56,279 nt of DNA from an uncultured Candidatus Saccharibacteria bacterium (lineage in GTDB: Bacteria; Patescibacteriota; Minisyncoccia; Phycocordibacterales; UBA9973): positions 1-56,279 of the forward strand of contig CAYUDJ010000001.1 of NCBI GenBank assembly GCA_964443635.1. The letters run 5' to 3'. Made by a program: the position numbers and the translations under genes. The notes beneath the pieces were generated by a model. The model saw only the letters and a list, made by a program, of their open reading frames with translations, was not told the origin of the DNA and did not search any database. Below are positions 147-35,239 of this stretch, piece by piece. Each line of letters starts with the position of its first letter. Within the stretch, counting starts at the first letter, position 1.

Positions 147-1085
147 ATGGATATTGAAAATCTAAAAAAGAATCCGAAAACCAGCTACCTCGCACAGGAA
201 TACGAGAAGCTTTTGACGCAAGAAAAAGAAGTACACGAATTGATTGCAAGTGATGCATCGATGGCTGAGCTTGGTACTGATGACTTGGCAGCAATCGCTG
301 TGCAAAAGACTGCACTTGAAAACCAGGTTAAGGCGATCGAAGAAAGCGAAAAAGAAGAAGAGGAATTCCCCAATGAAATCATTCTCGAAGCCCGTGCAGG
401 TGCAGGAGGGGACGAAGCAGCACTCTTTGCGATGCAGCTCATCGAGATGTATGAACGATTCGCTGAAACACGCAAATGGTCTACCAAGCGCATCGATGAA
501 TACACACTCGAAATGAAAGGGAAGGATATTTATCGTCTGCTTCGTTTTGAGACAGGGGTGCATCGTGTGCAGCGCGTACCGGTCACCGAGAAAGCTGGCC
601 GTATTCATACATCAACTGCATCGATTGCAGTGCTTCCAATGCGCAAAAAGGTGAAGTTCGTCATCAATCCTGCGGACCTCGATATGGAGTATTCACGTTC
701 CGGAGGAGCGGGTGGGCAGAACGTCAACAAGGTTGAGACTGCAGTTCGTCTCATTCACCGACCGACGGGTATCGATGTGCGCTCTACGAGTGAGCGCAGC
801 CAGCTCGCAAACCGCGAGACAGCATTTGCCATTCTCACTGCAAAACTCCAAATGCTCAAAGAAGAAGAGGAGGCAAAGAAATACTCTGGTGACCGCAAGG
901 CACAGATTGGGACTGCTGACCGTTCAGAGAAAATCCGTACATACAACTTTCCACAGGACCGTATTACCGATCATCGTATTGGACAGAACTTTTCAAATAT
1001 CGAAGGAGTGATGCTTGGCAAACTTGACAAGATTATCGATGCTTTGCAGAGTGGGGAAGTGGGGGAGGTCAGTGATGATGAATAA
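147..1085 (+). CDS. prfA: Peptide chain release factor 1
   Basis: GGQ loop ([18 protein letters not shown]) and the RF1-type PxT tripeptide (RVQRVPVTE). Follows rpmE. The PVT motif lies about 40 residues closer to the N-terminus than in E. coli RF1. Confidence 0.9.
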
Positions 1086-1110: not shown

Positions 1111-4100
1111 ATGAATCAAGCTGTTTTTAATCAAAAAGTACTCAAAAAAGGATTCGTTCTCGCGAGTATTTTTTTGAGTATTTTTTTCCTTCCTACGGTA
1201 AGTCGCGCAGCAACTATATTGCAGGATGACTTTACTGGCACAATAATTGATACTTCAAAGTGGACTGAATTTGATACATTAGGCTTGGGGGGTACTGTTG
1301 GGAATCTCCAGCAAAATGACACGTTGCAAATACAAGATAGTGCAACCGGCGGGTATGGAGCTAGTGCGTTAGCTTCAAAAGTTAATATTAGTCCGACGAA
1401 TCTTGAGATTTCCTCAGTTATATCAAATGTTTCTTTTACTTCGAGCCCAATTATGGGGTATGGCGACAGGGATTATGCGAGTCCTGGAAAAAAAGCATAC
1501 TTTATGTTTGTTTATCATAGCGGAGTACTTGGTATATCGTTTAACAACGGCGTTGGTCAAAATACCGGGAGTGCTTGTGGGGCGTTTACCAATGGTGCAA
1601 CATATAAATTAAAAGTCATCTCGACTGGTTTCCAGCTTTACAAGAATAATGTTCTCATATGTACCCATACTCCCGGATTATCGAATCTTGTTTCGGGCAA
1701 ACCAGTTTTTCTTGAAAGTGAAGTAGCATCGAGCTCTTTTGATGACCTTTTAGTTACAGGAGATGGAACTCTTTCTGTTCCAGATGTTCCTACTGGCCTT
1801 TCATTAACTGCACGTACGACAGAGATCCGTGTTGCGTGGGTTGCTCCTGTTGTTCAAGGATTGTACGATATCACTGACTACATTATTGAATACAAACTTT
1901 CGAGTGATTCAGTATGGACAACGTTGAATGATGGAGTATCTACTACAACTTCTACCTCTATCACTGGTCTTACGAATGATCTTGCGTATGACGTGAGAGT
2001 TACGGCAGTGAATGCTGTGGGTAATAGCACCGCTGTATCATCATCAGCTACGCCAAGTATTGGGACAGTACCAAATGCACCAACGACCTTGACTGCTACA
2101 GCGCTCAATCAAGAGTTACGTGTTGCGTGGGTTGCTCCTGCAGTCGATGGGGGATCATCGTTGACTGACTACATCATTGAATACAAACTTTCGAGTGATT
2201 CAGTATGGACAACGTTGAATGATGGAGTATCTACTACAACTTCTACCTCTATCACTGGTCTTACGAATGATCTCAGTTATAATGTGAGGATTAGCGCAGT
2301 CAACGCCGTTGGGGCGGGGACACCAAGTAGTACGCTCACTGCGACACCTGTATTGGTGGTGGTGTTGCTCTCAGATTCATTCACTGGAACGACCATTGAT
2401 ACCACAAAGTGGAATGAAATTGACGGGGCTACTGGTGGGACCGAAGGTGATGTGCAACAAAATGGTGCCTTGACTATTGTTAATAGTGCAACCCCTACTG
2501 TTGGAAGCAAAGCGCTTGTATCTAAAACTGATTTTAAAACTGATAATTTAGAGGTATCAGCGGTTGTTACGAGTTCAACAAGTCCGATGATCGGGTATGG
2601 AGATCGGGTGTATGGTGGTGCCGGAAATAAAGCGTATCTTATCTATGCGTTTGGTGGGAACGTGCTTGGTTTGGTATGGAACAATGGGGTACTCCGTACA
2701 AATGTTGCATGTGGTTCTTTGGTGAGTGGAGCAACCTATAGAATGAAGGTAACTTCAACGGGATTTCAAGTGTATCGAAATAACACACTTGCCTGTACCG
2801 TCACACCAAACATAGCGTATGTCGTTGACAATAAACCCATTTTCTTTGAAGGAGATACTGCAATTGCAAGTAGTTTTGACGACGTGTTGATTATTGGTAA
2901 ACCACTCACTCCTATTAGTCCAACTTCCGTAACAGCTGTTGCTGGAGATACATCGGCAACGGTGAGCTTTTCATATTCAAATATTAATACGACTTCGCAA
3001 GTGACGAGTTATACCGTCACGAGCTCTCCAGGAGGAATAACCGCAACAGGGGTAACCTCTCCTATTGTGGTGACAGGGCTCACCAACGGTACACCGTATA
3101 CATTTACTGTGACTGCCACAACAGTTCCTGTTGGTACTTCTGCCGCATCGTCACCTTCTAGTTCTGTTACGCCTGCATTACCGGCTGCTCCTGATCAGGT
3201 GACAGGCGTAACTGGTATTGCAGTGAATCGCCAGGTGATCATTGGCTGGAATGCTCCTTCAGGCGCAATCACTGACTACATCATTGAATACAAACTTTCG
3301 AGTGATTCAGTATGGACAACATTTGCTGATGGTGTTTCTTTGGCAGTAAAAACAGTTGTCACTGGTCTTACCAATAATGCTGCGTATGATTTTCGGGTGA
3401 GTGCAGTCAATAATGGAGGCACTGGTGCTTCTTCAACGCCAATTTCAGCGACACCCTCTGCTATTACAGCGCTTTCATTTGTTATCACTGGTGAAAGTAA
3501 TGCTGGTGGACAGGTGTTCAATACAGCGCCAACATCTGAAGAACTTGCGCCTACATCAGAAGTTCAAATATTGAATAACACTTCGCTTGTTTTTGAAGAT
3601 CTTGATATTGGTACGAACAATAACATTGATCACTTTGGATTGACGTGTTGTACCACCCATGGCTTTGAACTTGAGCTGGCAAATAGAACCAAGGAGTATG
3701 CATTTACCGATTTGCCGATGGTGTACTTGCTGAAAACAGGACACGGAGGGTCTCGATTGAGTCAGTGGGATGTTGGGCAGTCATACTGGACGAAGTTTCT
3801 TGAGCGTACTGCTGCAGCAAAAACACAACTACCGTCACCGAGACAATGGGTAGTATGGATGAGTTTGGGTATCAATGATTTTTATGCGAGCACTTCAACT
3901 GCATCATTCAAGTCTGCAATGCTCAGTCATATCAATAAAATAAAAGCTGATCTTCCTGGAGCCATTGTTATCATGACGCAATTCCAATCGATGACTGCCA
4001 ATGGAGGATATGTTTCGTATAACCAGGCAATGGCAGAACTAGCTGCAAGTGAGGAGGGTGTGTATGTCGTGGATTCGACAGGTGCTGCATTGGATGATAT

Positions 4101-5133
4101 GAACCATTGGAGCTATACCGGACTCAAGACAGTTGCAGATAGAATGATTACGATAACCAATACTGCAATTGGTTTGATATACCCAGGAGTTCCGACCTCT
4201 GTTAGTGGTATGTCGGGAGACGAACAGGTGTCACTTTCATGGACTGCCCCTACATCAGATGGTGGGTCAGCAATCACTGACTACATCATTGAATACAAAC
4301 TTTCGAGTGATTCAGTATGGACAACATTTGCTGATGGTACCTCATCTGCAACTACTGCATCGATTACTGGGCTTACGAATGACGTTCAATATGATTTGAG
4401 AGTTTCTGCGGTGAACAGTTCAGGTACAGGAGATGCTTCTAGCGTCACTACTGCAACACCGGCATTTATCGCTACAACATATACAGTATCGGGGCCTTCT
4501 ACAGGTGTTGTTAATGCCACATCTTCTTCATTTACCGTGACTCCAAATGGTCCCTATGATGGTACTATTACGATTACACCAGACGGCGGAGGAGTGAGTA
4601 CTCCTATTGTCCTTACTTTTACTGATGCAACTCCTCAGACATTTACTGTTACACCTACCGCTGTAGGTACTGTGACACTTACCTCAACAAATAGCGGCGC
4701 ATTGGTTGATCCGAGTGTACTTATGTATGAAGTCACTGCACTGCCTACTCCTCCCGTAACCAGGACAGTTGTTAGTAGTGGAAGTATTGCAATTGTGCCT
4801 AGGCCAGCGACATGTACCATAGGGCAGTTGTTTAATACCAATACAGGGAATCCGTGCACAAGCACAACTTCTTCTTTACCATCTGTCTATGACTTCACTC
4901 GAAATCTGTCGTACAGGATAAGTGGAGATGATGTGCGACAACTGCAGGTGTATCTCAATACTCATGGGCATCCAGTTGCATTATCAGGCGTTGGTTCGAG
5001 AGGGTATGAAACGAGTTACTTCGGACCTGCTACGCGTGCTGCCCTTATCAAGTTTCAGATTGCAAACAATATTAAACCTGCTATTGGCTTCTTTGGGCCA
5101 TTGACGAGGAGTTTTGTAGGTGCGCATAGATAA
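1111..5133 (+). CDS. Large secreted, wall-anchored multidomain protein: signal peptide, 2 ConA/LamG-like domains, 5 FN3 domains, SGNH/sialate-O-acetylesterase-like domain, Ig-like region, C-terminal peptidoglycan-binding domain
   Basis: N-terminal hydrophobic segment (LASIFLSIFFLPTVSRA). Two related lectin-like modules (DDFTGTIIDTSKWTEFD... and DSFTGTTIDTTKWNEID...). Repeated FN3 signature DYIIEYKLSSDSVWTT...TGLTN...Y..RV.AVN. Esterase-like blocks ITGESNAGG, SLGINDF, DDMNHW. C-terminal PG_binding_1-like GDDVRQLQVYLN...FGPATRAALIKFQ. Confidence 0.85.
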   Translation: MNQAVFNQKVLKKGFVLASIFLSIFFLPTVSRAATILQDDFTGTIIDTSKWTEFDTLGLGGTVGNLQQNDTLQIQDSATGGYGASALASKVNISPTNLEISSVISNVSFTSSPIMGYGDRDYASPGKKAYFMFVYHSGVLGISFNNGVGQNTGSACGAFTNGATYKLKVISTGFQLYKNNVLICTHTPGLSNLVSGKPVFLESEVASSSFDDLLVTGDGTLSVPDVPTGLSLTARTTEIRVAWVAPVVQGLYDITDYIIEYKLSSDSVWTTLNDGVSTTTSTSITGLTNDLAYDVRVTAVNAVGNSTAVSSSATPSIGTVPNAPTTLTATALNQELRVAWVAPAVDGGSSLTDYIIEYKLSSDSVWTTLNDGVSTTTSTSITGLTNDLSYNVRISAVNAVGAGTPSSTLTATPVLVVVLLSDSFTGTTIDTTKWNEIDGATGGTEGDVQQNGALTIVNSATPTVGSKALVSKTDFKTDNLEVSAVVTSSTSPMIGYGDRVYGGAGNKAYLIYAFGGNVLGLVWNNGVLRTNVACGSLVSGATYRMKVTSTGFQVYRNNTLACTVTPNIAYVVDNKPIFFEGDTAIASSFDDVLIIGKPLTPISPTSVTAVAGDTSATVSFSYSNINTTSQVTSYTVTSSPGGITATGVTSPIVVTGLTNGTPYTFTVTATTVPVGTSAASSPSSSVTPALPAAPDQVTGVTGIAVNRQVIIGWNAPSGAITDYIIEYKLSSDSVWTTFADGVSLAVKTVVTGLTNNAAYDFRVSAVNNGGTGASSTPISATPSAITALSFVITGESNAGGQVFNTAPTSEELAPTSEVQILNNTSLVFEDLDIGTNNNIDHFGLTCCTTHGFELELANRTKEYAFTDLPMVYLLKTGHGGSRLSQWDVGQSYWTKFLERTAAAKTQLPSPRQWVVWMSLGINDFYASTSTASFKSAMLSHINKIKADLPGAIVIMTQFQSMTANGGYVSYNQAMAELAASEEGVYVVDSTGAALDDMNHWSYTGLKTVADRMITITNTAIGLIYPGVPTSVSGMSGDEQVSLSWTAPTSDGGSAITDYIIEYKLSSDSVWTTFADGTSSATTASITGLTNDVQYDLRVSAVNSSGTGDASSVTTATPAFIATTYTVSGPSTGVVNATSSSFTVTPNGPYDGTITITPDGGGVSTPIVLTFTDATPQTFTVTPTAVGTVTLTSTNSGALVDPSVLMYEVTALPTPPVTRTVVSSGSIAIVPRPATCTIGQLFNTNTGNPCTSTTSSLPSVYDFTRNLSYRISGDDVRQLQVYLNTHGHPVALSGVGSRGYETSYFGPATRAALIKFQIANNIKPAIGFFGPLTRSFVGAHR
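1828..2409 (+). repeat. Tandem 291-bp duplication encoding two FN3 domains
   Basis: Period 291 nt (cgtgttgcgtgggttgctcctg at 1828 and 2119). The 110-nt block 1873-1982 equals 2164-2273 with a single mismatch (1884 vs 2175). Confidence 0.9.
3268..3333 (+). repeat. 66-nt FN3-coding block identical to 4273-4338
   Basis: atcactgactacatcattgaatacaaactttcgagtgattcagtatggacaacatttgctgatggt occurs identically at 3268-3333 and 4273-4338. Its core also matches the 1873 and 2164 copies. Confidence 0.9.
4273..4338 (+). repeat. 66-nt FN3-coding block identical to 3268-3333
   Basis: Direct comparison of the two stretches shows 66/66 identity. Confidence 0.9.
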
Positions 5134-23568: not shown

Positions 23569-24696
23569 CTATTGTTTCTCGTGTGCGAGTGCTATAGATA
23601 ATGCTTCATTTGCGATGATACGTGCAGCATCAGGCTTGAAGAAGGCCTTTGCATGGGCTGACATTGCCTCATAGCGCTCCTTGCTCCCCAATATTGACTC
23701 TATCTCGTTTTGCAATACAGATGGTGTGAGATTTGCTTCCTCGATAACAACACATGCTCCAGTACGAACATAGTGATACGCATTCTTGCGTTGGTGGTCT
23801 CCATGAGCGATGGCATAGGGAATGAGAATGGATGGCTTGCCCCATGCTGCTATTTCAAACAGCGATGAACCAGATCGAGAGACGATGATATCGACTGCTC
23901 CCCCAAACATCTTGGTCTGCACGTCATTCATGAACTTGTATGGCTTGTAGCGGGTGCGTGTCGTGCTTTCTCCTAGACTGATACGAGCTTGTAATGTCAT
24001 CTCATCGTAGTCCTTGTCCCCTGTCTGATGAATAACCTGGTATTTCTGCAAGAGCGCAGGAAGGATTTGCAGTACAGCATCATTGATGACTTTTGCTCCT
24101 TGTGATCCGCCCCAGACGCCGATTGTTGGCATGTCGTTTAGTTCGAAGTACGAGAGAGCACTTTCTCTGGCTGTGTGGTTGATAGACTTGCGCACCGGCT
24201 GACCAGTGATTGAAACTTTCTTTTCATCAAAATACTTTGCTGCCTCTGGAAATGAGAGTGCAATCTTTTGTGCAAATTTCCCTGACCATTTGCTGACGCG
24301 TCCTGGAACTGTATCGCTCTCGTGAATAATGACTGGTATGCGCAACAGCTTTGCTGCAATCAACACTGGAAAACTCGCATAGCCACCTTTTGAAATGATG
24401 ACATCAGGATAGAGTTTGAAGACTTTAAAAATCGCACCAATCGTACCAAATATAGTCTTGAATATATCGATGAAGTTCTGCAATGAAAAATAAACACGGA
24501 GTTTCCCTGCAGTGATCGGAATGAATGTGATGAACTGCTCCTCGAGTATTTGCGCATTGAATGGTTTGTCCGCCATGTAGTAGAGCTTCATGGTGATGAT
24601 GCGTTCTTCGTCGGCGATATGGTTGAGTTCTTCGGCAATGGCAATCAGCGGGTAAAAGTGTCCGCCAGTTCCCCCTCCGGTGAGTAAGATTTTCAT
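23569..24696 (-). CDS. murG: UDP-N-acetylglucosamine--N-acetylmuramyl-(pentapeptide) pyrophosphoryl-undecaprenol GlcNAc transferase
   Basis: MKILLTGGGTGGHFYPLIAIAEEL plus the C-terminal GT28 blocks (SRSGSSLFEIAAWGKPSILIP). Confidence 0.9.
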   Translation of the reverse strand: MKILLTGGGTGGHFYPLIAIAEELNHIADEERIITMKLYYMADKPFNAQILEEQFITFIPITAGKLRVYFSLQNFIDIFKTIFGTIGAIFKVFKLYPDVIISKGGYASFPVLIAAKLLRIPVIIHESDTVPGRVSKWSGKFAQKIALSFPEAAKYFDEKKVSITGQPVRKSINHTARESALSYFELNDMPTIGVWGGSQGAKVINDAVLQILPALLQKYQVIHQTGDKDYDEMTLQARISLGESTTRTRYKPYKFMNDVQTKMFGGAVDIIVSRSGSSLFEIAAWGKPSILIPYAIAHGDHQRKNAYHYVRTGACVVIEEANLTPSVLQNEIESILGSKERYEAMSAHAKAFFKPDAARIIANEALSIALAHEKQ

Positions 24697-24799
24697 TACT
24701 TCTATTTTAGCTATTTTCGCCTTGTGATACAAGCTATTTACTGCTATTGATTTATCTTTATATGTATGCTATAATATCTACAACTAAACTTTAAAAATT

Positions 24800-25339
24800 A
24801 TGCTCTTTTTACGTCACGGTCATGCCACCAAACATAAGTTTGGTATTGATCTCCTTCGCCCCTTGTCTGAAGAAGGCATGGAAAAGGTTAAGAATATAGA
24901 ATTCCCCATTGAATTTGGCGATGTAATAATGTCTCCCGCCATGCGCACAAGGGAGACAGCACATATTGCTTTATATCAACAAAACAAACGTCTTAAAATG
25001 AATAAAATAAGAGACGTACGTTTTTCTCCCAATCTGTATGCTCCGATTCTTCTACCAGAAATGGACGCCATGTATACAAAGCACGGTGACCATGTACTGG
25101 GATATTATGAAGATAAGGACATTGCAAACACCATGCAGATAATAACGATGGCAACAGATGAGGTAATGGGACTTAACGCAGAGGATACCTTGGTTGTTGC
25201 ACATAGTGCAATCCTTAATTTTATCGCCCACCAAATATTTGGGTTTAAGGAGTTATTGGAGATAGATCTGGGAACTGCGGAAGGATTTTATGTTAAGAAC
25301 GGCTGGGATAAGGAGAATTATGAAATCATACGATTCTAA
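24800..25339 (+). CDS. Histidine phosphatase superfamily protein (SixA / phosphoglycerate-mutase-like, 179 aa)
   Basis: N-terminal RHG motif (LFLRHGHA), SP..RTRETA block and second His (VVAHSAIL). The size is closer to SixA-type than to dPGM. Confidence 0.7.
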   Translation: MLFLRHGHATKHKFGIDLLRPLSEEGMEKVKNIEFPIEFGDVIMSPAMRTRETAHIALYQQNKRLKMNKIRDVRFSPNLYAPILLPEMDAMYTKHGDHVLGYYEDKDIANTMQIITMATDEVMGLNAEDTLVVAHSAILNFIAHQIFGFKELLEIDLGTAEGFYVKNGWDKENYEIIRF

Positions 25340-25359: not shown

Positions 25360-25397
25360 AAACCTGAAGATGAAAATTCTTCAGGTTTATTTTTTTA
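25360..25397. terminator. Bidirectional terminator shared by the phosphatase gene and the swivel-domain operon
   Basis: Perfect 11-bp stem aaacctgaaga / tcttcaggttt with 7-nt loop, then a T-run. Overlaps the stop codon at 25387. Confidence 0.7.
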
Positions 25398-26469
25398 CGG
25401 TAATGATTCCAGTATTCGTGTCTATCTCTACTGTATCTCCGTTTTTTAATATCTTGCTTGCAATTCCAGTGCCTACAATACAGGCGATATTCAATTCTCG
25501 TGCAGTGATTGCAGCATGGGAAAGTAGTCCACCGGTATCGGTGATGACGGCAGATGCTTTTGCAAGTACTGGCATGAGATCAGGATCCGTTGTTTCTGAA
25601 ACAAGTATTTCGCCCTGATTCATTTTATTCATTTCTTCCTGCATGGCCTGAGGTGAAGCGTAGTTTCTGTTCATGACGAAAACAGTGCCCGTAATGATTT
25701 TGCCTTTACCATGAGCAACCATACCTTTTATTACCTCAGTGACTACCTCTGGTGTATCAAAAACTTTGATGAGTTCTTCTGCCTCACTTCCCTGGTAAAT
25801 CTCATACCCTGATGACGTGTTTACAAAGATGTGACCTGACTTTCGATCAGATATGGTATTGTCTTGTATTTTTTTGCCATCAAAAAGATCGAGTAACTCT
25901 TTTTCCGTATGCCATTCAAGATCTGATTGTGAAATTCCAAATTGCTGAGACAGTTTCTCAATAGTAGTCGGTAAGTATCCTTCTTTATCAAAAAAGATAG
26001 GATTCAGTTCTGTGCGGATAACGTTCTTAAAATTCTGAACCAAATCAACAAGTTCTTGTGCTGAAGTGTTTGTTTCAGATTCTTTAAAGGCTACATCCCA
26101 ATACCGGTAATCAAAATATTCATACAGTCGACATACACGGCCCATTTTTTCAAACATTGCAATTACATCTTCTTTGGTAAGAATATCTTTTGCTTGGAAT
26201 ACAGGGATTTCTTTTTGTACCTGAGCTACAAGTGCTGTAAGTGTTACTATTACTTCCTTTGTCTTTTCTACGGTTCTCTCTGTGCCTTCCTTGTCCATAT
26301 TGCGGACTACATCATGTGAGAGATAGACGGTGTTTTTACCATTTTTGTGGTATGTAACGGAGTCACCAATCGGGTTATAGTAATGTGCCACGATATCCTG
26401 GAATATAAAGGTAGTACCTTCGGATCCATAGTTATAGACGTAATCTGATTTTTTGAGATTTGGAACCAT
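25387..26469 (-). CDS. Phosphohistidine swivel (PEP-utilizer mobile) domain protein, 360 aa, divergent N-terminal region (P1)
   Basis: C-terminal ...ILVSETTDPDLMPVLAKASAVITDTGGLLSHAAITARELNIACIVGT...GDTVEIDTNTGIITV. Catalytic His codon at 25516-25518. Confidence 0.85.
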   Translation of the reverse strand: MVPNLKKSDYVYNYGSEGTTFIFQDIVAHYYNPIGDSVTYHKNGKNTVYLSHDVVRNMDKEGTERTVEKTKEVIVTLTALVAQVQKEIPVFQAKDILTKEDVIAMFEKMGRVCRLYEYFDYRYWDVAFKESETNTSAQELVDLVQNFKNVIRTELNPIFFDKEGYLPTTIEKLSQQFGISQSDLEWHTEKELLDLFDGKKIQDNTISDRKSGHIFVNTSSGYEIYQGSEAEELIKVFDTPEVVTEVIKGMVAHGKGKIITGTVFVMNRNYASPQAMQEEMNKMNQGEILVSETTDPDLMPVLAKASAVITDTGGLLSHAAITARELNIACIVGTGIASKILKNGDTVEIDTNTGIITVKK

Positions 26470-26470
26470 G

Positions 26471-27871
26471 TTAGATAATTTTTACTACTCCTGTATTTGC
26501 ATCAACCTCGAGCGTGTCACCATCTTTAATAAGTTGGGTGGCAACCTTAGTACCAATAATACAGGGAATATTTAGCTCTCTGGATATGATTGCTGCGTGA
26601 CAGGTGATACCTCCCTCGTTAGTTATTACAGCTCCAGCCTTTTTCATGAGCGGAACAAACTCGGGGCGAGTCATACTGGTAACAAGAATGTCCCCTTGCT
26701 GAAATCCTTTATTTTCATGAGGGTCAAGTATTACCCGGGCAATTCCCTTCACATTCCCTTTGCAAGCGATCTGTCCTTTTATACTGTCAGTTTTTTCTAC
26801 TTTGTGTTCAATAAATTGAGTGAGTTCCTGGGTAGCGATATGTATATCACAATGCTCAGTTTTATAGGAATAATCTGGGTATGTTAAAAAAATACAACCG
26901 TTGCTTCGCTGCTCGATCTCATTTTTATTTTCTGAAAGATAGGTAACACCTTTCATATATTCATGCATTAAAACAAGGGGTGCTATTTTTATATCGACAC
27001 CGGCTCTTTCGAGCATTACTACTGACAATTCTGCAAACATTGTTTGCATCTGAGCGATAGGGTCTTTACGAAGATCGCGCATGTGCATCACTAGTTGCGC
27101 AAATTGAGCGATACTTCTTGAATCAGTGTCGAGTGTCTCAAGCCAGAGCAGTTGCTTGCGCATCTTCTCTTCTGAAGATATACGAAGATCTTCGTACTCT
27201 TTTTCCTTTTCAGGTAAATTTTGGCTGATATCTTCGAGTGCGCTGGATATGTCTGAATCGCTTTTTGTCCAAAAATAATCAGTGAATATAAATTTTGCCT
27301 TACGAATTTTGTTTAGAGAATTACCAGTGACTACTTCAAGGAGCTTCTTTAGTCGTCGGCCTTCGAAGGAGATAAATACATTTTCTATTGCCTGTTTCCA
27401 AATCGTATCAAGTGTAGCTTTATGCGCCGGGCCTATAACTGAAAGAATTTTCTCATAATCCACATTTTCAATATAGAGCGTTTCGTTCGCCATTGCCAAA
27501 AATAATTCGTTTACTTTCTTTGCATAGTTTTGCAAGTCAGTATCTGACAAGTCTGCTAGGTTTTTATCAGTAAATTCATCGTAGAGTGCCTGAACATTTT
27601 TTTCAAAAGAAAAATAGCCTTGCTCTAATTCTTTGATAGATGTTTCTTGATTAAAATAGTGTCTAAACTTATCCAGAGCAATCGCAATGTATTCCTTTTC
27701 ATTGAGAGCAAGATAGGTAGTGCGGTCTTTCGTTATACAAAAGATATGCAACGGGTGCACTTTCTCATGCCATGTGACTATCATGAATAAAGGTGAAAGT
27801 GGTGCTTGCAATGAAAAAACAGGATCTTCTCCAATAATGCTTTTGAATTCTTCAATAAGTTTGTATGACAT
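26471..27871 (-). CDS. Phosphohistidine swivel domain protein, 466 aa, helical N-terminal region (P2)
   Basis: C-terminal GDILVTSMTRPEFVPLMKKAGAVITNEGGITCHAAIISRELNIPCIIGT...GDTLEVDANTGVV. His codon at 26597-26599. Confidence 0.85.
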   Translation of the reverse strand: MSYKLIEEFKSIIGEDPVFSLQAPLSPLFMIVTWHEKVHPLHIFCITKDRTTYLALNEKEYIAIALDKFRHYFNQETSIKELEQGYFSFEKNVQALYDEFTDKNLADLSDTDLQNYAKKVNELFLAMANETLYIENVDYEKILSVIGPAHKATLDTIWKQAIENVFISFEGRRLKKLLEVVTGNSLNKIRKAKFIFTDYFWTKSDSDISSALEDISQNLPEKEKEYEDLRISSEEKMRKQLLWLETLDTDSRSIAQFAQLVMHMRDLRKDPIAQMQTMFAELSVVMLERAGVDIKIAPLVLMHEYMKGVTYLSENKNEIEQRSNGCIFLTYPDYSYKTEHCDIHIATQELTQFIEHKVEKTDSIKGQIACKGNVKGIARVILDPHENKGFQQGDILVTSMTRPEFVPLMKKAGAVITNEGGITCHAAIISRELNIPCIIGTKVATQLIKDGDTLEVDANTGVVKII

Positions 27872-27874
27872 ATG

Positions 27875-29359
27875 TTATAAAATTTTAACTATTCCAGTAT
27901 TCGCATCTAGTTCCACCATATCTCCATCCCTGAGTACTTTTGTAGCATTCTTTGTGCCAATGATACAGGGTTTTTTCATTTCTCGAGAAACGATTGCTGC
28001 ATGACAAGTGATACCTCCTTCGTCAGTAATGATACCCTTTGCCATGCGCATCAGTGGAACGAATTCAGGGCGGGTCATACCAGTCACCAATATATCCCCT
28101 TCTTCCATTTTGTGCGAGTCATTGTATGGATCAATGATAATCTTGACCTTTCCTGTCACGAGGCCTTTGGAGCCGATATTTCCTTTGATTTCGCGTATAT
28201 CGCTGCCTATTGCGAGACCATGCTGAGTCGTAAACAGATGCTCCATCTTTGTTTTGTTTGTATCCGCATCGTACTCTACGTATACCTCACCATCATCATA
28301 GTTTATAAAAAGTGCAAATCCGCCAGTCTGTCTTTTCTCAAGGTCTGTCTGAATGGATGAGATAAATGCAGGACCCTTAAGCATTTCTTCAAACGTAGCA
28401 AAATCAAGAAGTGAGACTGGTATGGAGAGTTCTTCACTAACTATCTTTACGTATCGATATATGGCTGTAATGGTCATACTCAATGTGTCACGTAATGAAT
28501 CGCGAAGCTTAATGATGTGTTTTGTATAGACAGCGAGCCTCTGCTCCTCTGCTGAAAGTGTTTCAAGCCATGCCGCATAGGCTGACTGCTTTGCTTGAAG
28601 TTCCTCTGCTATTTCCTGTCGGATATGGGCCCTATCCTCGGCGGTTGCATACTGAAGATATTCTTCCTGTACTTTCTTCTTTGCAGTTGCATGATCAAGT
28701 GATCCACCAAATCCTGCATAGAAATATTGTGTTTGCGTTGTGAGATCATCAAGTGATACATCACGATCAACCATATCAAATACTTTCAATGCACTGCGCT
28801 TATCAAATGAGAGACTTGCAGGCAAGGTCAGTGTCTCCCATATCTCGTCAAGTCGTTCATTGCTGATACTACTCCCTGCTTCAGCAAGCATGCTTTTCAC
28901 GAACTCTTTCTCAAAACCAAATGCATACCAACCATTGCAGTTCGTGTATCCTTCTGCGTCATTGATAGCTTGCAGGCTCTCTGCAATTTCTACAGCAGGC
29001 ATTGCTTTGATGCGTTCTTCTGTGAGCTCTCGATACAGCGTTTCAATCTGAGCAACATATGCTTGGCGCCCCTCTTCAAGTTCTGTAATCACTGACTGAT
29101 CATTCCAGTATTTCAAAAACACTTCTCGTGAGATTGAGTTGAAATGAGTCTCGGTCACCCAGTACGTACTACTTGTGCCTTTTGCAACGGAAAAAGAAAT
29201 ACACGGTATTGTTGTCTCAAACCATTTCTCAAAGTATTTCTTTTGAGTCCAGGCGAGCGAGTTGTTGAGGATGGTGAAGTTATGAACGCCATTAAAAAGT
29301 GTCTGGTCTCCGACTTTGGATTTGTAGAGTTCGAATAGGTTTTCGGCGACTTTTTGCAT
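27875..29359 (-). CDS. Phosphohistidine swivel domain protein, 494 aa, helical N-terminal region (P3)
   Basis: C-terminal GDILVTGMTRPEFVPLMRMAKGIITDEGGITCHAAIVSREMKKPCIIGT...GDMVELDANTGIV. His codon at 28001-28003. Confidence 0.85.
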   Translation of the reverse strand: MQKVAENLFELYKSKVGDQTLFNGVHNFTILNNSLAWTQKKYFEKWFETTIPCISFSVAKGTSSTYWVTETHFNSISREVFLKYWNDQSVITELEEGRQAYVAQIETLYRELTEERIKAMPAVEIAESLQAINDAEGYTNCNGWYAFGFEKEFVKSMLAEAGSSISNERLDEIWETLTLPASLSFDKRSALKVFDMVDRDVSLDDLTTQTQYFYAGFGGSLDHATAKKKVQEEYLQYATAEDRAHIRQEIAEELQAKQSAYAAWLETLSAEEQRLAVYTKHIIKLRDSLRDTLSMTITAIYRYVKIVSEELSIPVSLLDFATFEEMLKGPAFISSIQTDLEKRQTGGFALFINYDDGEVYVEYDADTNKTKMEHLFTTQHGLAIGSDIREIKGNIGSKGLVTGKVKIIIDPYNDSHKMEEGDILVTGMTRPEFVPLMRMAKGIITDEGGITCHAAIVSREMKKPCIIGTKNATKVLRDGDMVELDANTGIVKIL

Positions 29360-29361
29360 GG

Positions 29362-32300
29362 CTATTTCCCAATTATAGTCACAGTTCCGTTATCAGCATC
29401 TACTTCAACCACATCACCATCTTTAAGAATTTTTGTTGCTCGCTTGGTTCCGATAACACATGGCTTCTTGAGCTCTCGAGCAATAATTGCCGCGTGGCAA
29501 GTAATACCTCCTTCGTCAGTGATAAATGCCGAAGCCTTTTTCATCGCAGGTACGTATTCAGGACGAGTCATTGATGCGACAAGAATTTCGCCATCCTTAA
29601 AGTTATCAATCGCTTCGAGTGAAAGACAGACACGGATTACCCCGGTGACTTTTCCAGCAAAAGCTGCTTGTCCGTGGAGTATAGTCACGTCTTCATCAAT
29701 TACTTCTGAGAATTGATCAATGAATTCTTGTGCTTGTGAGCCCGTGAGTATTGTTCTTTGTAAAGTTTTTGGAGCGTAGTCAACAAAGAGTTTTGCGCGT
29801 TCAACGAGCTCATTTTGGAACGATGGATCAGTAGTCTTTTCAACCTCTTCGGGTAAAAGGAATTTGATTGACTCTTCAGATATATTGAGTTTTCGAGCCA
29901 GCGCATCCAATACGGGTTGGCTGTAGTAAATACTCGAGAGTATGTTTGCTTTGCGTTCATCTTGCCATGAGAACAAATGCGATAGGATTTCAGTGAAATC
30001 GTGTCGTCCCCCATTCTCTATTGTTTCGATATGCTCAGTTTTATTTTTTTGAGCCAGCTCTTTGATGAAATCAATGGAGATCGTGTTGCGACCTAAGTAC
30101 GAACTTTGTATCCAGGCATATTCTTTTTCAAATGCTTGCAATATCTCCTGCTCACTTTTTCCTGAATCAAACAATTCTTGAGCATACAATTCAGCTTTAC
30201 GTAGGAAGGACATTTCTGATGGTTTGATAGTCTGCGGATCAATCTTGTATTCCTGCTTTAATTTCTGCTCAGCAACATATGAGGCGCATTCTACGATGTG
30301 CGCAATCCCACCACTCGCCCACAATCTGTCCACCTGTTTTTTCAAAAGATCCTTCAGTTCATCGACAGAAAGCTGGTCCAAATCGGCCTCTTTGTATACA
30401 GCACCCAGTACCGCTTCTTGGTATGTATTTCTGTATTCAGTTATCAGTTTTTGGATATCGTCCAAGTTTTGTACTTTATTCCAAAATATTTCGCCGAGTT
30501 GTTGGTAGTCGTTCTTGTCGTAATGCCACTCTACATTTTTGCTGTGTGAAATACAGAGGAAGTGTTTATACGATAGATTCCATGGAAGTTTGAAGCCAGA
30601 AAGTGTTGCGACACTGCTGATGAAAAATGGATATGCGTTAAAACGTTGTACATCCCAATCAATATCCTTCAGCTGATCTACTAGAGATGTGCTTTTAGTA
30701 AGGATTTTGACGATTCCGTTATCCGCATCCACTTCTACCTCATCGCCATCGTTCAAAATCTTCGTGATATCTTTTATGGCAATAATACAAGGCTTGTTCA
30801 ACTCGCGCGAAACAATCGCTGCATGACTGGTGATACCACCCCTTCCTGTGAGAATCGCGGCAGCCATTCGCATAAGGGGCACGAATGTTGGAGATGTTTC
30901 TACAGCAACAAGGATTTCTCCTTCTTTAAAGTTCTCGAATTCCTTTGCTGAATTAATGATTCGTACTTTTGCAGTTACTTTGCCCTTTGAAGCACCGATC
31001 CCTCTGAGCTCTGTGGTTTGGTCATTTTTATGAGTGTCGATGTAGAGATCATAGACGATAGAATACTCCTTATCCTTTGCGGTCAGGATCGTTTCTACGC
31101 CATGAGTATCAACCACACAAAAGAACGGGTTCTTTCTTTCCATGACTTCATCTTTGTTTGCAATGTTCTCGTCAGGATTTTTAACAAGTTTTTGCAACTC
31201 TTGAGGTGTAAGGAGGAGGACATCTGAAAATTCTAAACCATTAACTTTTCCAATAGTTGTGAAAATGCTATGCATTCGTTCAGCCATCATCATCTCGAGC
31301 ATTGTTGCTTGTGCTCTGTAGTACGCAGCATTGACTGATACTGCTACCAATCCATCGCATTCATCAATATTGTTTTTGTACATTCGGTCAATATAGTTCT
31401 TCTCTACGACATTGTTGATTTCTTCAGCAAGTCTTTTCTGTGCGTACTCTATGTCGATAGGATCCCCGGCCCACTTGCTGATACGTGCCCATGAGAACTT
31501 CTTGAGATAGACAGCTATTGTATCCTTGAGTTCAGTGTCAGAGTCAATACGAGATACGAGTTCAGTCACTGAATGATCTGGGTATTTCTCGACATACTGC
31601 TCAGCAATGCGACGCATTGCTGCAACTTCTTCTTCAATCCATGATTCGCGTAAATAGGGATGAACTTTTTCAAACAGATCGGCTTCTGTTGATACAACGC
31701 CCATCTTCTTTGCAAGAGGTGAAATCTGGTTACCGATGACAGTGGTAGCAGTCCAAAAACCAATAAATTCTTGGTAGTTCTTAAACAGAGATTCAAAGTT
31801 AGTAAGGATGTAATCGTCATCTTTTTGAAGAGTAGTAATTATTTCTTTGAATAACTTGCTGCCCTCAGCGTCAGTTCTTAATGCCAAATCTTTTAGCTTT
31901 TCTCCTTTGTAGAGCTTTTCCAAATAGGCATTCAAGTTATTGAACGTCTTGATATCGTGAAATGCGTATCCATCAATCGTGAAAATTCCACCAAGATCGC
32001 AATTTTCTGTTATCCGCTTTACAACAGATGCATCACTCCAATGAGTAAACAAAGACCATATCAATGGAGATTGCACCCAGCGACCATCTTCGATCCAAAG
32101 ATCTTTATTCAAAATACGTAAATCTCGCAACAAATCATTGGTGCTGATAATCCTTACTATCCCATTATCTGCATCAACTTCAACGATGTCCCCATCCTTC
32201 AGGAGTGCAGTCGCAAATTTTGTTCCAATAACACAAGGCTTATTGAGCTCGCGAGCAACAATAGCGGCATGGCATGTGATACCACCTTCATCGGTAATGA

Positions 32301-32952
32301 TTGCAGCGGCTTTTTTCATGGCAGGGACGAACTCAGGAGTCGTCATTGCAGAGACAATAATGTCGCCTTCCTGGGCTTCATCAATCTGCTCTTTGCGTTT
32401 GAGAATGCGTACAACGCCCTTTGCATAACCTTTGTTACCAGCTTGCCCAACAAGTGTCGTCGCATCTGTTGGAGGAGTTTCAATTTCAAATACATAATCA
32501 TTGTGCAAAGCTCGGTATTCAGAAAGTGAACCGACAAAGAGTTCACTGCCATTCATGATGGATGCGCGCTTTCGGGCTTGGAGGATTTCTTTTGCAGGAG
32601 GATTGTCTATTTCATTAAAAAGTATGGTGCTTTCCAACCCCTTGAGTTCAGGATATATCTTTTGGAGACTGAGACGAATCATGTCGTCACTTGTGCCAAA
32701 GTAGCTATCCACATCACGGATCTTGAGTGCGCGTGTGCGTAGATCTGCTGGGGTGCGCTCATCCACACCAGAGTAGTACATGAAATCAAAAGCATACATG
32801 TAGTCATATACTTTCCGCATGAAATCTTTAAGTTCTTCTTTTGTAGTAACAAATTTCTTGTCCCAGTATTGTTTGATATCAGCAAGTTCACGCTCATGCT
32901 GGTCGAGCATATTGGGAATAAATGAAGGCTCTGCTTGTATCTTGACCTGCAA
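29362..32952 (-). CDS. Triple-module protein (1196 aa) with three phosphohistidine swivel domains separated by divergent helical regions (P4)
   Basis: Swivel domains at about aa 168-270, 650-752 and 1093-1196 (nt about 32143-32451, 30697-31005, 29365-29676), with GGITCHAAIVAREL, GGITSHAAIVSREL and GGITCHAAIIAREL. The ORF begins at TTG 32952; the first ATG is 14 codons later. Confidence 0.8.
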   Translation of the reverse strand: MQVKIQAEPSFIPNMLDQHERELADIKQYWDKKFVTTKEELKDFMRKVYDYMYAFDFMYYSGVDERTPADLRTRALKIRDVDSYFGTSDDMIRLSLQKIYPELKGLESTILFNEIDNPPAKEILQARKRASIMNGSELFVGSLSEYRALHNDYVFEIETPPTDATTLVGQAGNKGYAKGVVRILKRKEQIDEAQEGDIIVSAMTTPEFVPAMKKAAAIITDEGGITCHAAIVARELNKPCVIGTKFATALLKDGDIVEVDADNGIVRIISTNDLLRDLRILNKDLWIEDGRWVQSPLIWSLFTHWSDASVVKRITENCDLGGIFTIDGYAFHDIKTFNNLNAYLEKLYKGEKLKDLALRTDAEGSKLFKEIITTLQKDDDYILTNFESLFKNYQEFIGFWTATTVIGNQISPLAKKMGVVSTEADLFEKVHPYLRESWIEEEVAAMRRIAEQYVEKYPDHSVTELVSRIDSDTELKDTIAVYLKKFSWARISKWAGDPIDIEYAQKRLAEEINNVVEKNYIDRMYKNNIDECDGLVAVSVNAAYYRAQATMLEMMMAERMHSIFTTIGKVNGLEFSDVLLLTPQELQKLVKNPDENIANKDEVMERKNPFFCVVDTHGVETILTAKDKEYSIVYDLYIDTHKNDQTTELRGIGASKGKVTAKVRIINSAKEFENFKEGEILVAVETSPTFVPLMRMAAAILTGRGGITSHAAIVSRELNKPCIIAIKDITKILNDGDEVEVDADNGIVKILTKSTSLVDQLKDIDWDVQRFNAYPFFISSVATLSGFKLPWNLSYKHFLCISHSKNVEWHYDKNDYQQLGEIFWNKVQNLDDIQKLITEYRNTYQEAVLGAVYKEADLDQLSVDELKDLLKKQVDRLWASGGIAHIVECASYVAEQKLKQEYKIDPQTIKPSEMSFLRKAELYAQELFDSGKSEQEILQAFEKEYAWIQSSYLGRNTISIDFIKELAQKNKTEHIETIENGGRHDFTEILSHLFSWQDERKANILSSIYYSQPVLDALARKLNISEESIKFLLPEEVEKTTDPSFQNELVERAKLFVDYAPKTLQRTILTGSQAQEFIDQFSEVIDEDVTILHGQAAFAGKVTGVIRVCLSLEAIDNFKDGEILVASMTRPEYVPAMKKASAFITDEGGITCHAAIIARELKKPCVIGTKRATKILKDGDVVEVDADNGTVTIIGK

Positions 32953-32964
32953 CGTATCGAGAAT

Positions 32965-34110
32965 CTATGGTGTCGCACTAGTATTTTCCCATACTTCAAT
33001 AACACCATCGTTCATATAGAAAAGTACTGGTGGGACGTTCGGGTTTTGTGGGCCACCGTAGCGTACGAACTTGTTGAGAACTGTTTCGTACCAACCTTCC
33101 TCGATCATATAGGTGTAGTCACGCGTGTATTCCTTGATGAATTTGATTGAAGTATCTTCTACGAGAGCAGTAAGTGTGGTAATCGGTCGGCTCTGCACCA
33201 CATAGAACTTCCCTGCTTCAAATGCCCATTCGATATCGCATGGAAAGCCGTAGTGACGCTCAATGGTCATGATGATATTAGAAAATTCATGGATCTCGTC
33301 TTCGGTCAGTACCTGAGATGCTGCCTTTGCATCATCAAGGTTAATCCATTCATTCCCTCCTCCCTGTTTTCGATACATCGCGCGGGTCTGGTTTGAAACG
33401 TTGATATCGATGATGCGGCGTGGCTCTTTCTCAACAACATAACTGTCAGGAGTTACTGAGCCGGATACGATCGCTTCTCCGAGTCCAAATCCAGCCTCAA
33501 TGATGAGTTGGTTGCGATCTTCGGTAACCGGGTGCACAGAGAATGCAATACCGGACACTTCTGAGTTCACCATTTTCTGAACGACAACAGCAACGGAGAT
33601 TTTCGTGGTGTGAAGTCCTTTTTCAAAGCGATAAAAGATTGCACGAGGAGTAAACAATGATGCCCAGCAATGCTGAACCTTTTCAAGAAGAGTATCTTTG
33701 GTTGTGTTGAGGTAGCTGTCGAGTTGTCCTGCCCATGCGTGATCAGCACCGTCTTCTGCCGTCGCACTTGATCGCACTGCGACGAATTCACTGTCGAGTG
33801 CTGCAAACTGTGTCTCGATGTCAGCTGCAATGTCGGCTGGCATGTTTGCATGCTTGATGAGTCCTTGGATCTGTTCTGATGCTCCATCAATACTGTGCAC
33901 TGCCTTGTGATCAACTGCATCCAAAATAGCGTCAATCTCCTGGAGGAGCCCTGCCTTGTGGAGGAATTCATCAAATGTAGTAGAGAGGACGACGAAGCCG
34001 TCTGGTACCGGGATGCCGGCATTCATCATTTCACCCAGAGAGGCGCCTTTACCGCCGGCGATGAGCGAATCACCTTTGTTTAATTGACTAAATTTCCTGG
34101 TCAACTCCAT
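32965..34110 (-). CDS. Stand-alone ATP-grasp nucleotide-binding domain protein of the PEP synthase/PPDK/rifampicin-phosphotransferase superfamily (PPDK_N)
   Basis: GGKGASLGEM...GIPVPDGFV...VAVRSSATAEDG...AGQ..S...V..CWASLF..RAI.YR...MV.S..SG.AFS..P...IEA.FGLGE.IVSG.VTPD...IEWA...G.FYVVQSRPITTL. Ends with TAG in frame with the next gene. Confidence 0.88.
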   Translation of the reverse strand: MELTRKFSQLNKGDSLIAGGKGASLGEMMNAGIPVPDGFVVLSTTFDEFLHKAGLLQEIDAILDAVDHKAVHSIDGASEQIQGLIKHANMPADIAADIETQFAALDSEFVAVRSSATAEDGADHAWAGQLDSYLNTTKDTLLEKVQHCWASLFTPRAIFYRFEKGLHTTKISVAVVVQKMVNSEVSGIAFSVHPVTEDRNQLIIEAGFGLGEAIVSGSVTPDSYVVEKEPRRIIDINVSNQTRAMYRKQGGGNEWINLDDAKAASQVLTEDEIHEFSNIIMTIERHYGFPCDIEWAFEAGKFYVVQSRPITTLTALVEDTSIKFIKEYTRDYTYMIEEGWYETVLNKFVRYGGPQNPNVPPVLFYMNDGVIEVWENTSATP

Positions 34111-34120
34111 ATGACACCCA

Positions 34121-35239
34121 TTATACCTTTTTTTCGTATCTTGACACGTTCAGTATTATCCCCACCGCAGCCAAGGCAATAGCAAGTGAGCTTCCTCCGT
34201 GACTGATGAATACGAGCGGCACACCGGTCAGTGGGAAGAGTCCAACCAGAGATGCAATATTGAGGAATGACTGCGCCAATATGAGTGAGATAATACCTAC
34301 TACGAGATATCGTGAAAATGCATCTGGTGCGCGTATAGCAATCTTGTATCCACGGACTGCGAGGAATACGTACAGGATAACGAGGATCGTACTACCGAGG
34401 AATCCAAACTCTTCACCAAATACTGCGAATACTGAATCTCCTTGTGGCTCAGGCAGGTAGTTGAACTTCTGAACACTCTGCCCCAGTCCCCGACCAAAAT
34501 ATCCACCGGATCCAACAGCGATGAGTGACTGCTGGAGCTGGTATGACGCGCCTCGTGGGTCGCTCGATGGGTTGAGATATGTTGTGAGACGATCACGGAC
34601 ATATGGACGGAAAAAGACGACTGCAGCAAAACCGACGATACCGATACCGATGACAATCAAGATCTTCTTCCAGGCGACTCCAGATACAAACAACATGCCG
34701 CATGATGCAACGGTGATCAGAATCAAGCTCTTTGTATCAGGTTGACGAAGCAAGACTGCCGCAACAATGCCGAGCAATACGATCAATGGTGCGATCTTGT
34801 ATTTCACTTCTTCCTTTTTCTTGTGCGTCCATGCAAGCCATGAGGAAAGGTATATAACGAATCCAATTTTCAAGAGTTCTGCCGGTTGAAATGATAATGG
34901 TCCAATAGAGAGCCATCGGCGAGCTCCGCCATGGGAGAATCCGAGGTGTGGGATGAATACTGCTGCGGTGAGGATGAGGCTGGCGATGAATATATAAAAA
35001 GCGTGCTTTCTCCAAAACATGTACGGAATCTTTGTTGTCAGCCACAGGGCAAGTAGACCCCCGACGTAGCCAAATACTATTTGGTTGAAGAGAACGCCAT
35101 AGAACTTGGTCTCGCTCTTTGCAAGAATACCAAGACTTGCCGAGACAAAAGACAACAGGCCGATTGTACTGATCAATATGACAATACCAAAGAAATATCG
35201 ATCAAATGGTTTAAGAGGTTGCTTGGTGGCAGTTGGCAT
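34121..35239 (-). CDS. ftsW: SEDS-family peptidoglycan glycosyltransferase FtsW/RodA
   Basis: 10-TM profile and conserved blocks (LQPAELLKI, LLLRQPD, GGYFGRGLGQS, LPEPQGDSVFAV, FPLTGVPLVFISHGGSS). dcw context next to mraY. Confidence 0.85.
   Translation of the reverse strand: MPTATKQPLKPFDRYFFGIVILISTIGLLSFVSASLGILAKSETKFYGVLFNQIVFGYVGGLLALWLTTKIPYMFWRKHAFYIFIASLILTAAVFIPHLGFSHGGARRWLSIGPLSFQPAELLKIGFVIYLSSWLAWTHKKKEEVKYKIAPLIVLLGIVAAVLLRQPDTKSLILITVASCGMLFVSGVAWKKILIVIGIGIVGFAAVVFFRPYVRDRLTTYLNPSSDPRGASYQLQQSLIAVGSGGYFGRGLGQSVQKFNYLPEPQGDSVFAVFGEEFGFLGSTILVILYVFLAVRGYKIAIRAPDAFSRYLVVGIISLILAQSFLNIASLVGLFPLTGVPLVFISHGGSSLAIALAAVGIILNVSRYEKKV

Follow-up and report, generated by a model that had tools for sequence, protein, structure and literature searches.

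The 56,279-nt stretch of DNA analysed here (the window), from contig CAYUDJ010000001.1 of an uncultured Candidatus Saccharibacteria bacterium (GCA_964443635.1), carries on its minus strand two open reading frames (ORFs) that share one frame and are separated by a single stop, an in-frame TAG at 32967..32965. ORF A (34110..32965, 381 aa), which ends at this TAG, encodes an ATP-grasp domain with a 64-residue tail, and ORF B (32952..29362, 1196 aa, with a TTG start) encodes three swivel domains, preceded by the remainder of the domain to which the tail of ORF A belongs, a putative substrate-binding domain that we call X1. Judging from related sequences, the TAG is a lineage-specific nonsense mutation (W382amber), in which one G>A transition has changed a conserved TGG codon of a gene that was ancestrally continuous. 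Of several ways to understand this arrangement, we favour, with a probability of roughly three in four, an ordinary, recent gene fission or incipient decay by nonsense mutation, where ORF B is reached by re-initiation, the freed ATP-grasp acts in trans, and no recoding device is involved.

The minus-strand junction reads ...ACA CCA TAG ATT CTC GAT ACG TTG CAG GTC AAG..., and the TAG differs from TGG (Trp) by one base (G>A at 32966, corresponding to C>T on the plus strand). The TTG at 32952..32950, 12 nt past the stop, is the likeliest re-initiation codon for ORF B; the first in-frame ATG (32910..32908), an alternative start, follows 14 codons later, 54 nt past the stop. Continuous translation of both ORFs gives 1582 residues. 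An initial annotation of the window had described this junction with its coordinates, the common frame with its single stop, and a read-through product of about 1580 aa in the order ATP-grasp, substrate domain, His swivel, and in all of these respects it proved accurate. ORF A matches PPDK_N (Pfam PF01326) over residues 17–317 (E = 1.4e-97), while ORF B has three stretches matching PEP-utilizers (PF00391, E = 4.6e-80), with histidine motifs of the form GGITCHAA or GGITSHAA.

The codon at the interruption

When ORF A, one residue and the first X-domain of ORF B were used as one continuous query, the best matches after ORF A itself were single proteins of 650–690 aa with both PF01326 and PF00391, which align unbroken across the stop with 59–68% identity over 99–100% of the query. 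On the sequence evidence, the sharing of a frame by A and B is more than chance. In an alignment of 48 sequences, 47 of them homologues, the column of the stop is occupied by Trp in 35 of the 47, including all of the closest ones, and forms part of a conserved WENxxAxxW motif. A stop at this position was found neither in the 47 homologues nor in 80 related loci from GTDB species genomes searched by tblastn, and the codon is TGG in the DNA of five loci (L004, L006, L007, L008 and L025).

The closest copy of X1 is found in L025, a metagenome-assembled genome (MAG) labelled Candidatus Saccharibacteria, where the X1+swivel module is 69% identical (in an alignment that begins at residue 283 of the read-through product) and sits in a different position than in the window. 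Here, GCG ACA CCA TGG ATT TTG GAT ACG TTG corresponds to GCG ACA CCA TAG ATT CTC GAT ACG TTG in the window, with the three codons before the TGG and the one after it being identical. As the related loci, with L025 the closest of them, keep TGG at this position, the TAG is the result of a single transition. The downstream TTG and ATG are ancestral sense codons and not newly evolved starts; the former is the Leu codon of a DTLQ motif, and the latter is a Met codon, with L025 likewise carrying FIPGMLDQHEREL. A scan of GTDB genomes returned no relative above 67% for the whole A+X1 unit, and a scan of JGI metagenomes for close relatives of X1 found none.

A recent nonsense split was among the options listed in the initial annotation, which also proposed a comparison of fused and split orthologues. 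The replacement of a conserved TGG in an ancestrally continuous gene strongly supports that option, and the closest homologues are indeed single uninterrupted ORFs. The alternative outcome, that orthologues would consist of two genes, the second with a proper start, was not seen, as the orthologues of module 1 (X1 and its swivel) are fused.

The identical 381-aa ORF with its TAG is present in three other public assemblies (SRR10036065, SRR10036063 and GCA_013558375.1). The contigs of SRR10036065 and SRR10036063 are 100% identical to the window at the DNA level, and that of GCA_013558375.1 (L003) differs by six synonymous single-nucleotide polymorphisms (SNPs), all of them in the upstream gene ftsW. 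Four assemblies, built from at least three read sets, thus have this base, and the TAG is carried by at least two strains. As it recurs in other assemblies, one of which represents a strain that differs slightly, the TAG is very unlikely to stem from an error of sequencing or assembly. Among 5.8 billion protein clusters, neither a TGG allele nor a fused, near-identical version of this gene was found. Comparison of the strains was uninformative with respect to signals of selection, as all six SNPs of L003 are in ftsW and the junction is not covered by L087. The six SNPs are clustered within 112 bp (L003 128..239, corresponding to 34436..34547 in the window), with the other ~2.2 kb being identical, as might be expected if the strains had recombined over a short tract.

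The stop lies about 66 codons beyond the ATP-grasp boundary, inside X1. In relatives, stand-alone ATP-grasp genes are 315–340 aa long and end right after the sequence SRPITTL, and in the natural splits that were followed by tblastn the stop falls at query residue 315–316, with an ATG within 0–4 codons in three of four cases (L070, L075 and L080). Residues 318–381 of the read-through product (33159..32968), which form the C-terminus of ORF A, align with residues 319–382 of the fused homologues, and can be assigned to X1 because in L025 and L022 the equivalent segment comes after a swivel and not after an ATP-grasp. The C-terminal part of X1, in ORF B, extends to 32461. In an AlphaFold2 model of an orthologue (P0002, mean predicted local distance difference test score 88.8), the equivalent residue, W383, is located inside a helix (378–394), preceded by a strand-helix-hairpin unit (323–377) and followed by a helical bundle. 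Of the near-invariant residues of X1, all of which are kept in the window, K326, R330 and G369 precede the stop, and R465 and R513 follow it. The mutation therefore divides a folded domain. A MAFFT alignment of five modules of the window, intended to test X1 across the stop, was dropped as the X-domains are too divergent for a reliable result, and P0038/L088 is at most a candidate for a second mid-domain split, as it has another type of X-domain.

Translation of ORF B and rival explanations

The lack of a Shine-Dalgarno (SD) sequence and the TTG start of ORF B, both pointed out in the initial annotation, are correct observations, but they do not set this gene apart, as both are normal for the genome. 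Among the 48 ORFs of at least 150 aa in the window, an SD core is found upstream of three, compared to 4.8 expected at random, and because SD use is rare throughout the window its absence before ORF B is uninformative. A TATAAT-like box is found 4–15 nt before the start in 16 of these ORFs (2.5 expected), which suggests that leaderless or very short-leader mRNAs are widespread. A strong promoter-like site (GTGTCA-16-TATAAT, 10 of 12 matches, at 34147..34120 on the minus strand) ends 9 nt before the ATG of ORF A, inside the 3' end of ftsW, and no such site was found before ORF B. In most same-strand gene pairs within operons, the next start is located between -17 and +13 nt from the preceding stop, an exception being the pair 147..1085 and 1111..5133, which are 25 nt apart. 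Since tightly spaced genes without an SD sequence are the norm here, a TTG 12 nt past the stop is a plausible site of re-initiation.

The process that we propose begins with one ancestral gene of about 1582 codons, encoding an ATP-grasp and three modules, each an X-domain plus a phospho-histidine swivel, in which a G>A change converted Trp codon 382 from TGG to TAG within the first X-domain. Ribosomes would stop at the TAG and release a 381-aa ATP-grasp with a 64-residue stub of X1, and some of them may re-initiate at the TTG or at the ATG (12 and 54 nt on, respectively), so producing ORF B. The free ATP-grasp could then charge in trans the swivels of modules 2–6, these being the second and third modules of ORF B and those of the downstream ORFs C, D and E, because the latter three already rely on it and because two-component dikinases act in trans. 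Module 1 is probably crippled, as its conserved residues are now split over two polypeptides; it may be inactive, or may function only where the two pieces of X1 re-associate non-covalently or where the stop is occasionally read through.

The frame of ORF B stays open over 1196 codons, none of its catalytic histidines has been lost, and swivel 1 is 82–87% identical to its orthologues. A faster evolution of X1, initially considered from region-wise identities, was dropped once Tajima relative-rate tests, in which P0010, P0014, P0015 and P0016 served as true outgroups, had shown balanced changes (e.g. 22/20, 23/18); the first impression of X1 divergence came from tree position and module shuffling. 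The sequences show no sign of relaxed constraint, which would fit a very recent mutation or continued use alike.

Several points weigh against fission with re-initiation. The translation of ORF B and the activity of ORF A rest on sequence inference, and there is hardly any difference between the strains with the TAG, which are too close to date the mutation or to gauge later selection. Moreover, a split in mid-domain, with a stub of X1 left behind, could destabilise ORF A, which would favour plain pseudogenisation, and the search for a suppressor tRNA, which returned tRNA-Ile as the only tRNA present and no suppressor, covers the window only.

Plain pseudogenisation, where ORF B is untranslated, ORF A is perhaps destabilised, and the front of the cassette is dead with no further lesions as yet, is the rival that we take most seriously, and we consider it unlikely, if by no means negligible. 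It would account for a break in mid-domain at a conserved Trp and for the presence of neither an SD sequence nor a promoter ahead of ORF B, and there are examples of such decay in this family, with X-domain stubs following the free ATP-grasp genes of L090 and L083 and a TGG>TGA change at a conserved ATP-grasp Trp in L052. However, ORF B has retained three catalytic His motifs and a well conserved swivel in an intact frame of 1196 codons, and its TTG follows the stop at a distance within that at which every other gene of the operon is translationally coupled (≤13 nt). The mutation is also common to two strains, and ORFs C, D and E need an ATP-grasp, of which ORF A provides the only one within the window.

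A programmed or regulated read-through of the TAG, which would yield the ATP-grasp in a free form and also tethered within a polyprotein of ~1582 aa, was another option of the initial annotation. A and B are in frame, the product would have a domain architecture that exists elsewhere, a low basal read-through by near-cognate tRNAs is unavoidable, and the base after the stop is an A, which in E. coli amber suppression is a comparatively leaky context. The common frame nevertheless gives this explanation nothing extra, as the nonsense origin already accounts for it, and the option found no support: the site has no stop in any homologue, the closest all having TGG; the 108 nt that start at the stop have a less stable fold than their shuffled counterparts (minimum free energy -17.3 versus -20.3, z = +0.92), and so provide no RNA structure after the stop; the window has tRNA-Ile as its only tRNA and no suppressor; TAG terminates cysS and murG at their expected ends; and the stop is placed within a folded domain at a conserved residue and not in a linker. 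We thus consider regulated read-through to be very improbable. The same applies to a leaky stop that would supply mostly free ATP-grasp for six modules and a little tethered polyprotein with the sole intact X1 site, although this, if true, would represent a bacterial read-through switch that determines how much of the catalytic subunit is free and how much is tethered. It is more likely than such a leaky stop that the window represents a live intermediate in a repeated interconversion between polyproteins with one ATP-grasp and three swivels and two-component arrays. The chance of a sequencing or assembly error, with TGG as the true codon and a fused gene, is slighter still. The TAG is a single base away from a sense codon, but the same base in four assemblies and at least three read sets, one from a strain with six SNPs nearby, contradicts the error option raised initially, and the change is a substitution and not a homopolymer indel. 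Finally, it is extremely unlikely that TAG is a sense codon, reassigned or encoding pyrrolysine, as nine of the 48 ORFs end with TAG, among them cysS and murG, both with full model coverage, and as the aligned residue is Trp and not Lys or Gln. In the eight TAG-ended ORFs other than ORF A, another in-frame stop always follows within 9–68 codons. The earlier view that TAG is a genuine stop elsewhere in the window, making code reassignment unlikely, is borne out, and within the window reassignment is excluded.

Relation to known dikinases

In the dikinase family, an attack by the swivel His on the beta-phosphate of ATP, which is bound in the ATP-grasp, is followed by hydrolysis of the gamma-phosphate, and the phospho-His then phosphorylates a hydroxyl of the substrate, which is held in the middle domain (PMC12167813). 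The window presumably uses, by analogy, the same His-pyrophosphoryl/phosphoryl relay as the phosphoenolpyruvate (PEP) synthase family. PEP synthase and pyruvate phosphate dikinase have homologous ATP-grasp and swivel domains and provide the best NCBIfam and PDB sequence matches. However, the PEP synthase models TIGR01418 and NF005057 reach only 320–349 bits (cutoffs 598 and 740) and cover up to ~460 of their 784–798 positions, aligning only at ~1–340 (ATP-grasp) and 336–460 (swivel), with scores of 326 and 349 versus a cutoff of 598. The C-terminal PEP/pyruvate-binding domain of PEP synthase is absent from the cassette, with no match above the Pfam threshold in ORFs A–D. In spite of the names given in databases, we rejected identity with PEP synthase, as the scores are below cutoff and the PEP-binding domain is missing.

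The uninterrupted homologues resemble rifampin phosphotransferase (RPH; Listeria monocytogenes, PDB 5HV1/5FBS) in the order of ATP-grasp, middle domain and C-terminal His swivel, in the motif GGxT[S/C]HAA, and in having no PEP/pyruvate TIM barrel. RPH is also the top Foldseek match of the P0002 orthologue model (E = 1.8e-38, whole-chain TM-score 0.45), and by sequence the ATP-grasp and swivel match PDB entries with E values down to 1e-109, RPH and PEP synthase being among those matched by the ATP-grasp. In contrast to RPH, where the middle domain has ~430 aa, X1 has ~230 aa and no PDB sequence match, and the window has up to six different X+swivel modules per ATP-grasp, of which three share a polypeptide. 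The NCBIfam model for RPH (NF041857) scores 286 bits for ORF A and 175 bits for ORF B, far below its cutoff of 999, so that RPH proper was rejected as an identity.

In the two-component dikinases PpsAB, HpeHI and CreHI, a free ATP-grasp subunit of ~40 kDa charges a separate subunit with substrate-binding and swivel domains via a transient complex (PMC12167813), and the HpeI structure 9goj matches the ATP-grasp of ORF A or its orthologue (PDB, Foldseek). The window has been similar to these systems since the mutation, in that ORF A is separate from ORFs B, C, D and E, the last three having always been so. It differs from them in the place of the split, which is at about residue 315 in the two-component dikinases, as it also is in the naturally split relatives from Patescibacteria, but at codon 382 within X1, and with no dedicated start, in the window. 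It further differs in number, with six modules instead of one partner per ATP-grasp. From these similarities, the A–B unit is predicted to work like a small-molecule dikinase of the RPH/PpsAB type without a TIM barrel.

As in other gene fissions by nonsense mutation with re-initiation, a transition has occurred in a Trp codon, an in-frame TTG and ATG pre-existed downstream, and the frame is kept; unlike in these, the fission point is off the domain boundary and one domain is sacrificed. We consider the TAG to be a routine nonsense mutation, and one that provides a natural experiment on whether an ATP-grasp freed in mid-domain can go on feeding swivels in trans. For annotation purposes, ORFs A and B should be treated as one disrupted gene (W382 amber); to label them as a PEP synthase, as a site of recoding or as a canonical ATP-grasp/swivel pair would be wrong.

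The cassette and its relatives

The description of ORF B as a triple-swivel gene was correct, but the cassette is larger than initially noted, as three more swivel genes downstream bring it to six modules. It occupies 25387..34110 on the minus strand, with one ATP-grasp followed by six divergent X+swivel modules. Within ORF B, swivel 1 (32460..32143, His codon at 32271..32269) is followed by module 2 (32142..30691, His 30825..30823) and module 3 (30690..29365, His 29496..29494). The fourth module is ORF C (29359..27875, 494 aa; PF00391, His 28003..28001), which begins 2 nt past the stop of ORF B, the fifth is ORF D (27871..26471, 466 aa; PF00391, His 26599..26597), and the sixth is ORF E (26469..25387, 360 aa; NCBIfam swivel matches, GGLLSHAA, His 25518..25516). 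The gaps between B and C, C and D, and D and E are 2, 3 and 1 nt. Each of ORFs C, D and E consists of a divergent X domain and a C-terminal swivel, without an ATP-grasp. The catalytic histidines, in motifs of the GGxT[S/C]HAA type, are residues 614, 1096 and 1539 of the read-through product and residues 453, 425 and 318 of ORFs C, D and E, respectively.

Apart from the ATP-grasp and swivel domains, the Pfam scan of ORFs A–D gave only a sub-threshold match to Epimerase_2, over a swivel of ORF B; matches of ORF E, which was scanned against NCBIfam only, are confined to swivel regions. The six X-domains have no match in Pfam, among PDB sequences or in PADLOC, and the PADLOC models of defence systems did not match any of ORFs A–E. 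At the junction of ORFs C and D (27869..27877), which is a natural module boundary, the two genes are in the same frame, and only a TAA and the codon CAT come between them ahead of the ATG. A fission may have taken place here at an earlier time, or the junction may be open to a fusion.

When the 80 related loci were surveyed for ATP-grasp (A) and swivel (S) motifs, single-ORF forms of the types AS, ASS, ASSS and ASSSS were found, with ASS to ASSSS genes of 1100–2396 aa in L008, L022, L025, L044, L061 and L066. The ASSS type is represented by ORFs of 1526 aa (L008), 1651 aa (L025), 1607 aa (L044) and 2029 aa (L061), and ASSSS by a single ORF of 2396 aa (L066). In another common architecture, A is free and as many as five S genes come after it as ORFs of their own (L058, L026, L040, L075 and L080). 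By its architecture, the 1582-aa read-through product would be an ordinary ASSS member. The order of modules is permuted between relatives, A-X?-m2-X1 in L025 versus A-X1-m2-m3 in the window, and the modules have therefore been shuffled.

These arrays, with one ATP-grasp and many swivels, are in our opinion more interesting than the TAG itself. Their modules may form part of polyproteins as long as ~2400 aa or be encoded by separate genes, with an order that is shuffled between relatives, which suggests a system for the phosphorylation of multiple small-molecule substrates in Patescibacteria-type organisms. One survey lists rph-like matches in genomes of the Candidate Phyla Radiation (CPR) (PMC8651080); a description of such arrays in CPR/Patescibacteria was not found among the open-access papers searched.

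Breaks are also seen at other loci. In L058 (position 9951), a single in-frame TAA is found between the ATP-grasp and an X-domain that starts immediately (WDYYGFWKQ), with the next Met ~29 codons on. In L090 (1836) and L083 (4633), free ATP-grasp genes carry X-domain stubs of 70–76 aa, with no coherent coding sequence beyond. Breakage between the ATP-grasp and the first module seems to be recurrent. In L052 (position 8763, Patescibacteria MAG H43-bin098_1), an in-frame TGA replaces the near-invariant Trp of GGNEW in an ATP-grasp homologue, which is probably a second, independent Trp-to-stop event in the family. Recoding of TGA was considered for L052 and rejected, as translation table 4 gave no clear gain in ORF length.

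The cassette is bracketed by ftsW (35239..34121, minus strand), its upstream neighbour, and murG (24732..23569, minus strand, ending with TAG). A conserved dcw-cluster context was nevertheless rejected: the closest full-length orthologues (L004 1803..4112 and L006 9079..10509) are in unrelated contexts, and apart from the window only L068 has ftsW and murG nearby. Since the contexts of the orthologues are unrelated, the cassette behaves as an accessory and possibly mobile unit and not as part of a cell-division cluster. One of the closest orthologues lies next to a helix-turn-helix regulator and a serine recombinase, and the other next to a MazEF pair and pyruvate kinase. A small gene on the plus strand (24800..25339), located between murG and the last swivel gene, has a weak match to His_Phos_1 (histidine-phosphatase), and its product may be a partner phosphatase. 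On the contig of P0116, a swivel gene and an ATP-grasp gene likewise come after a His_Phos_1-like gene.

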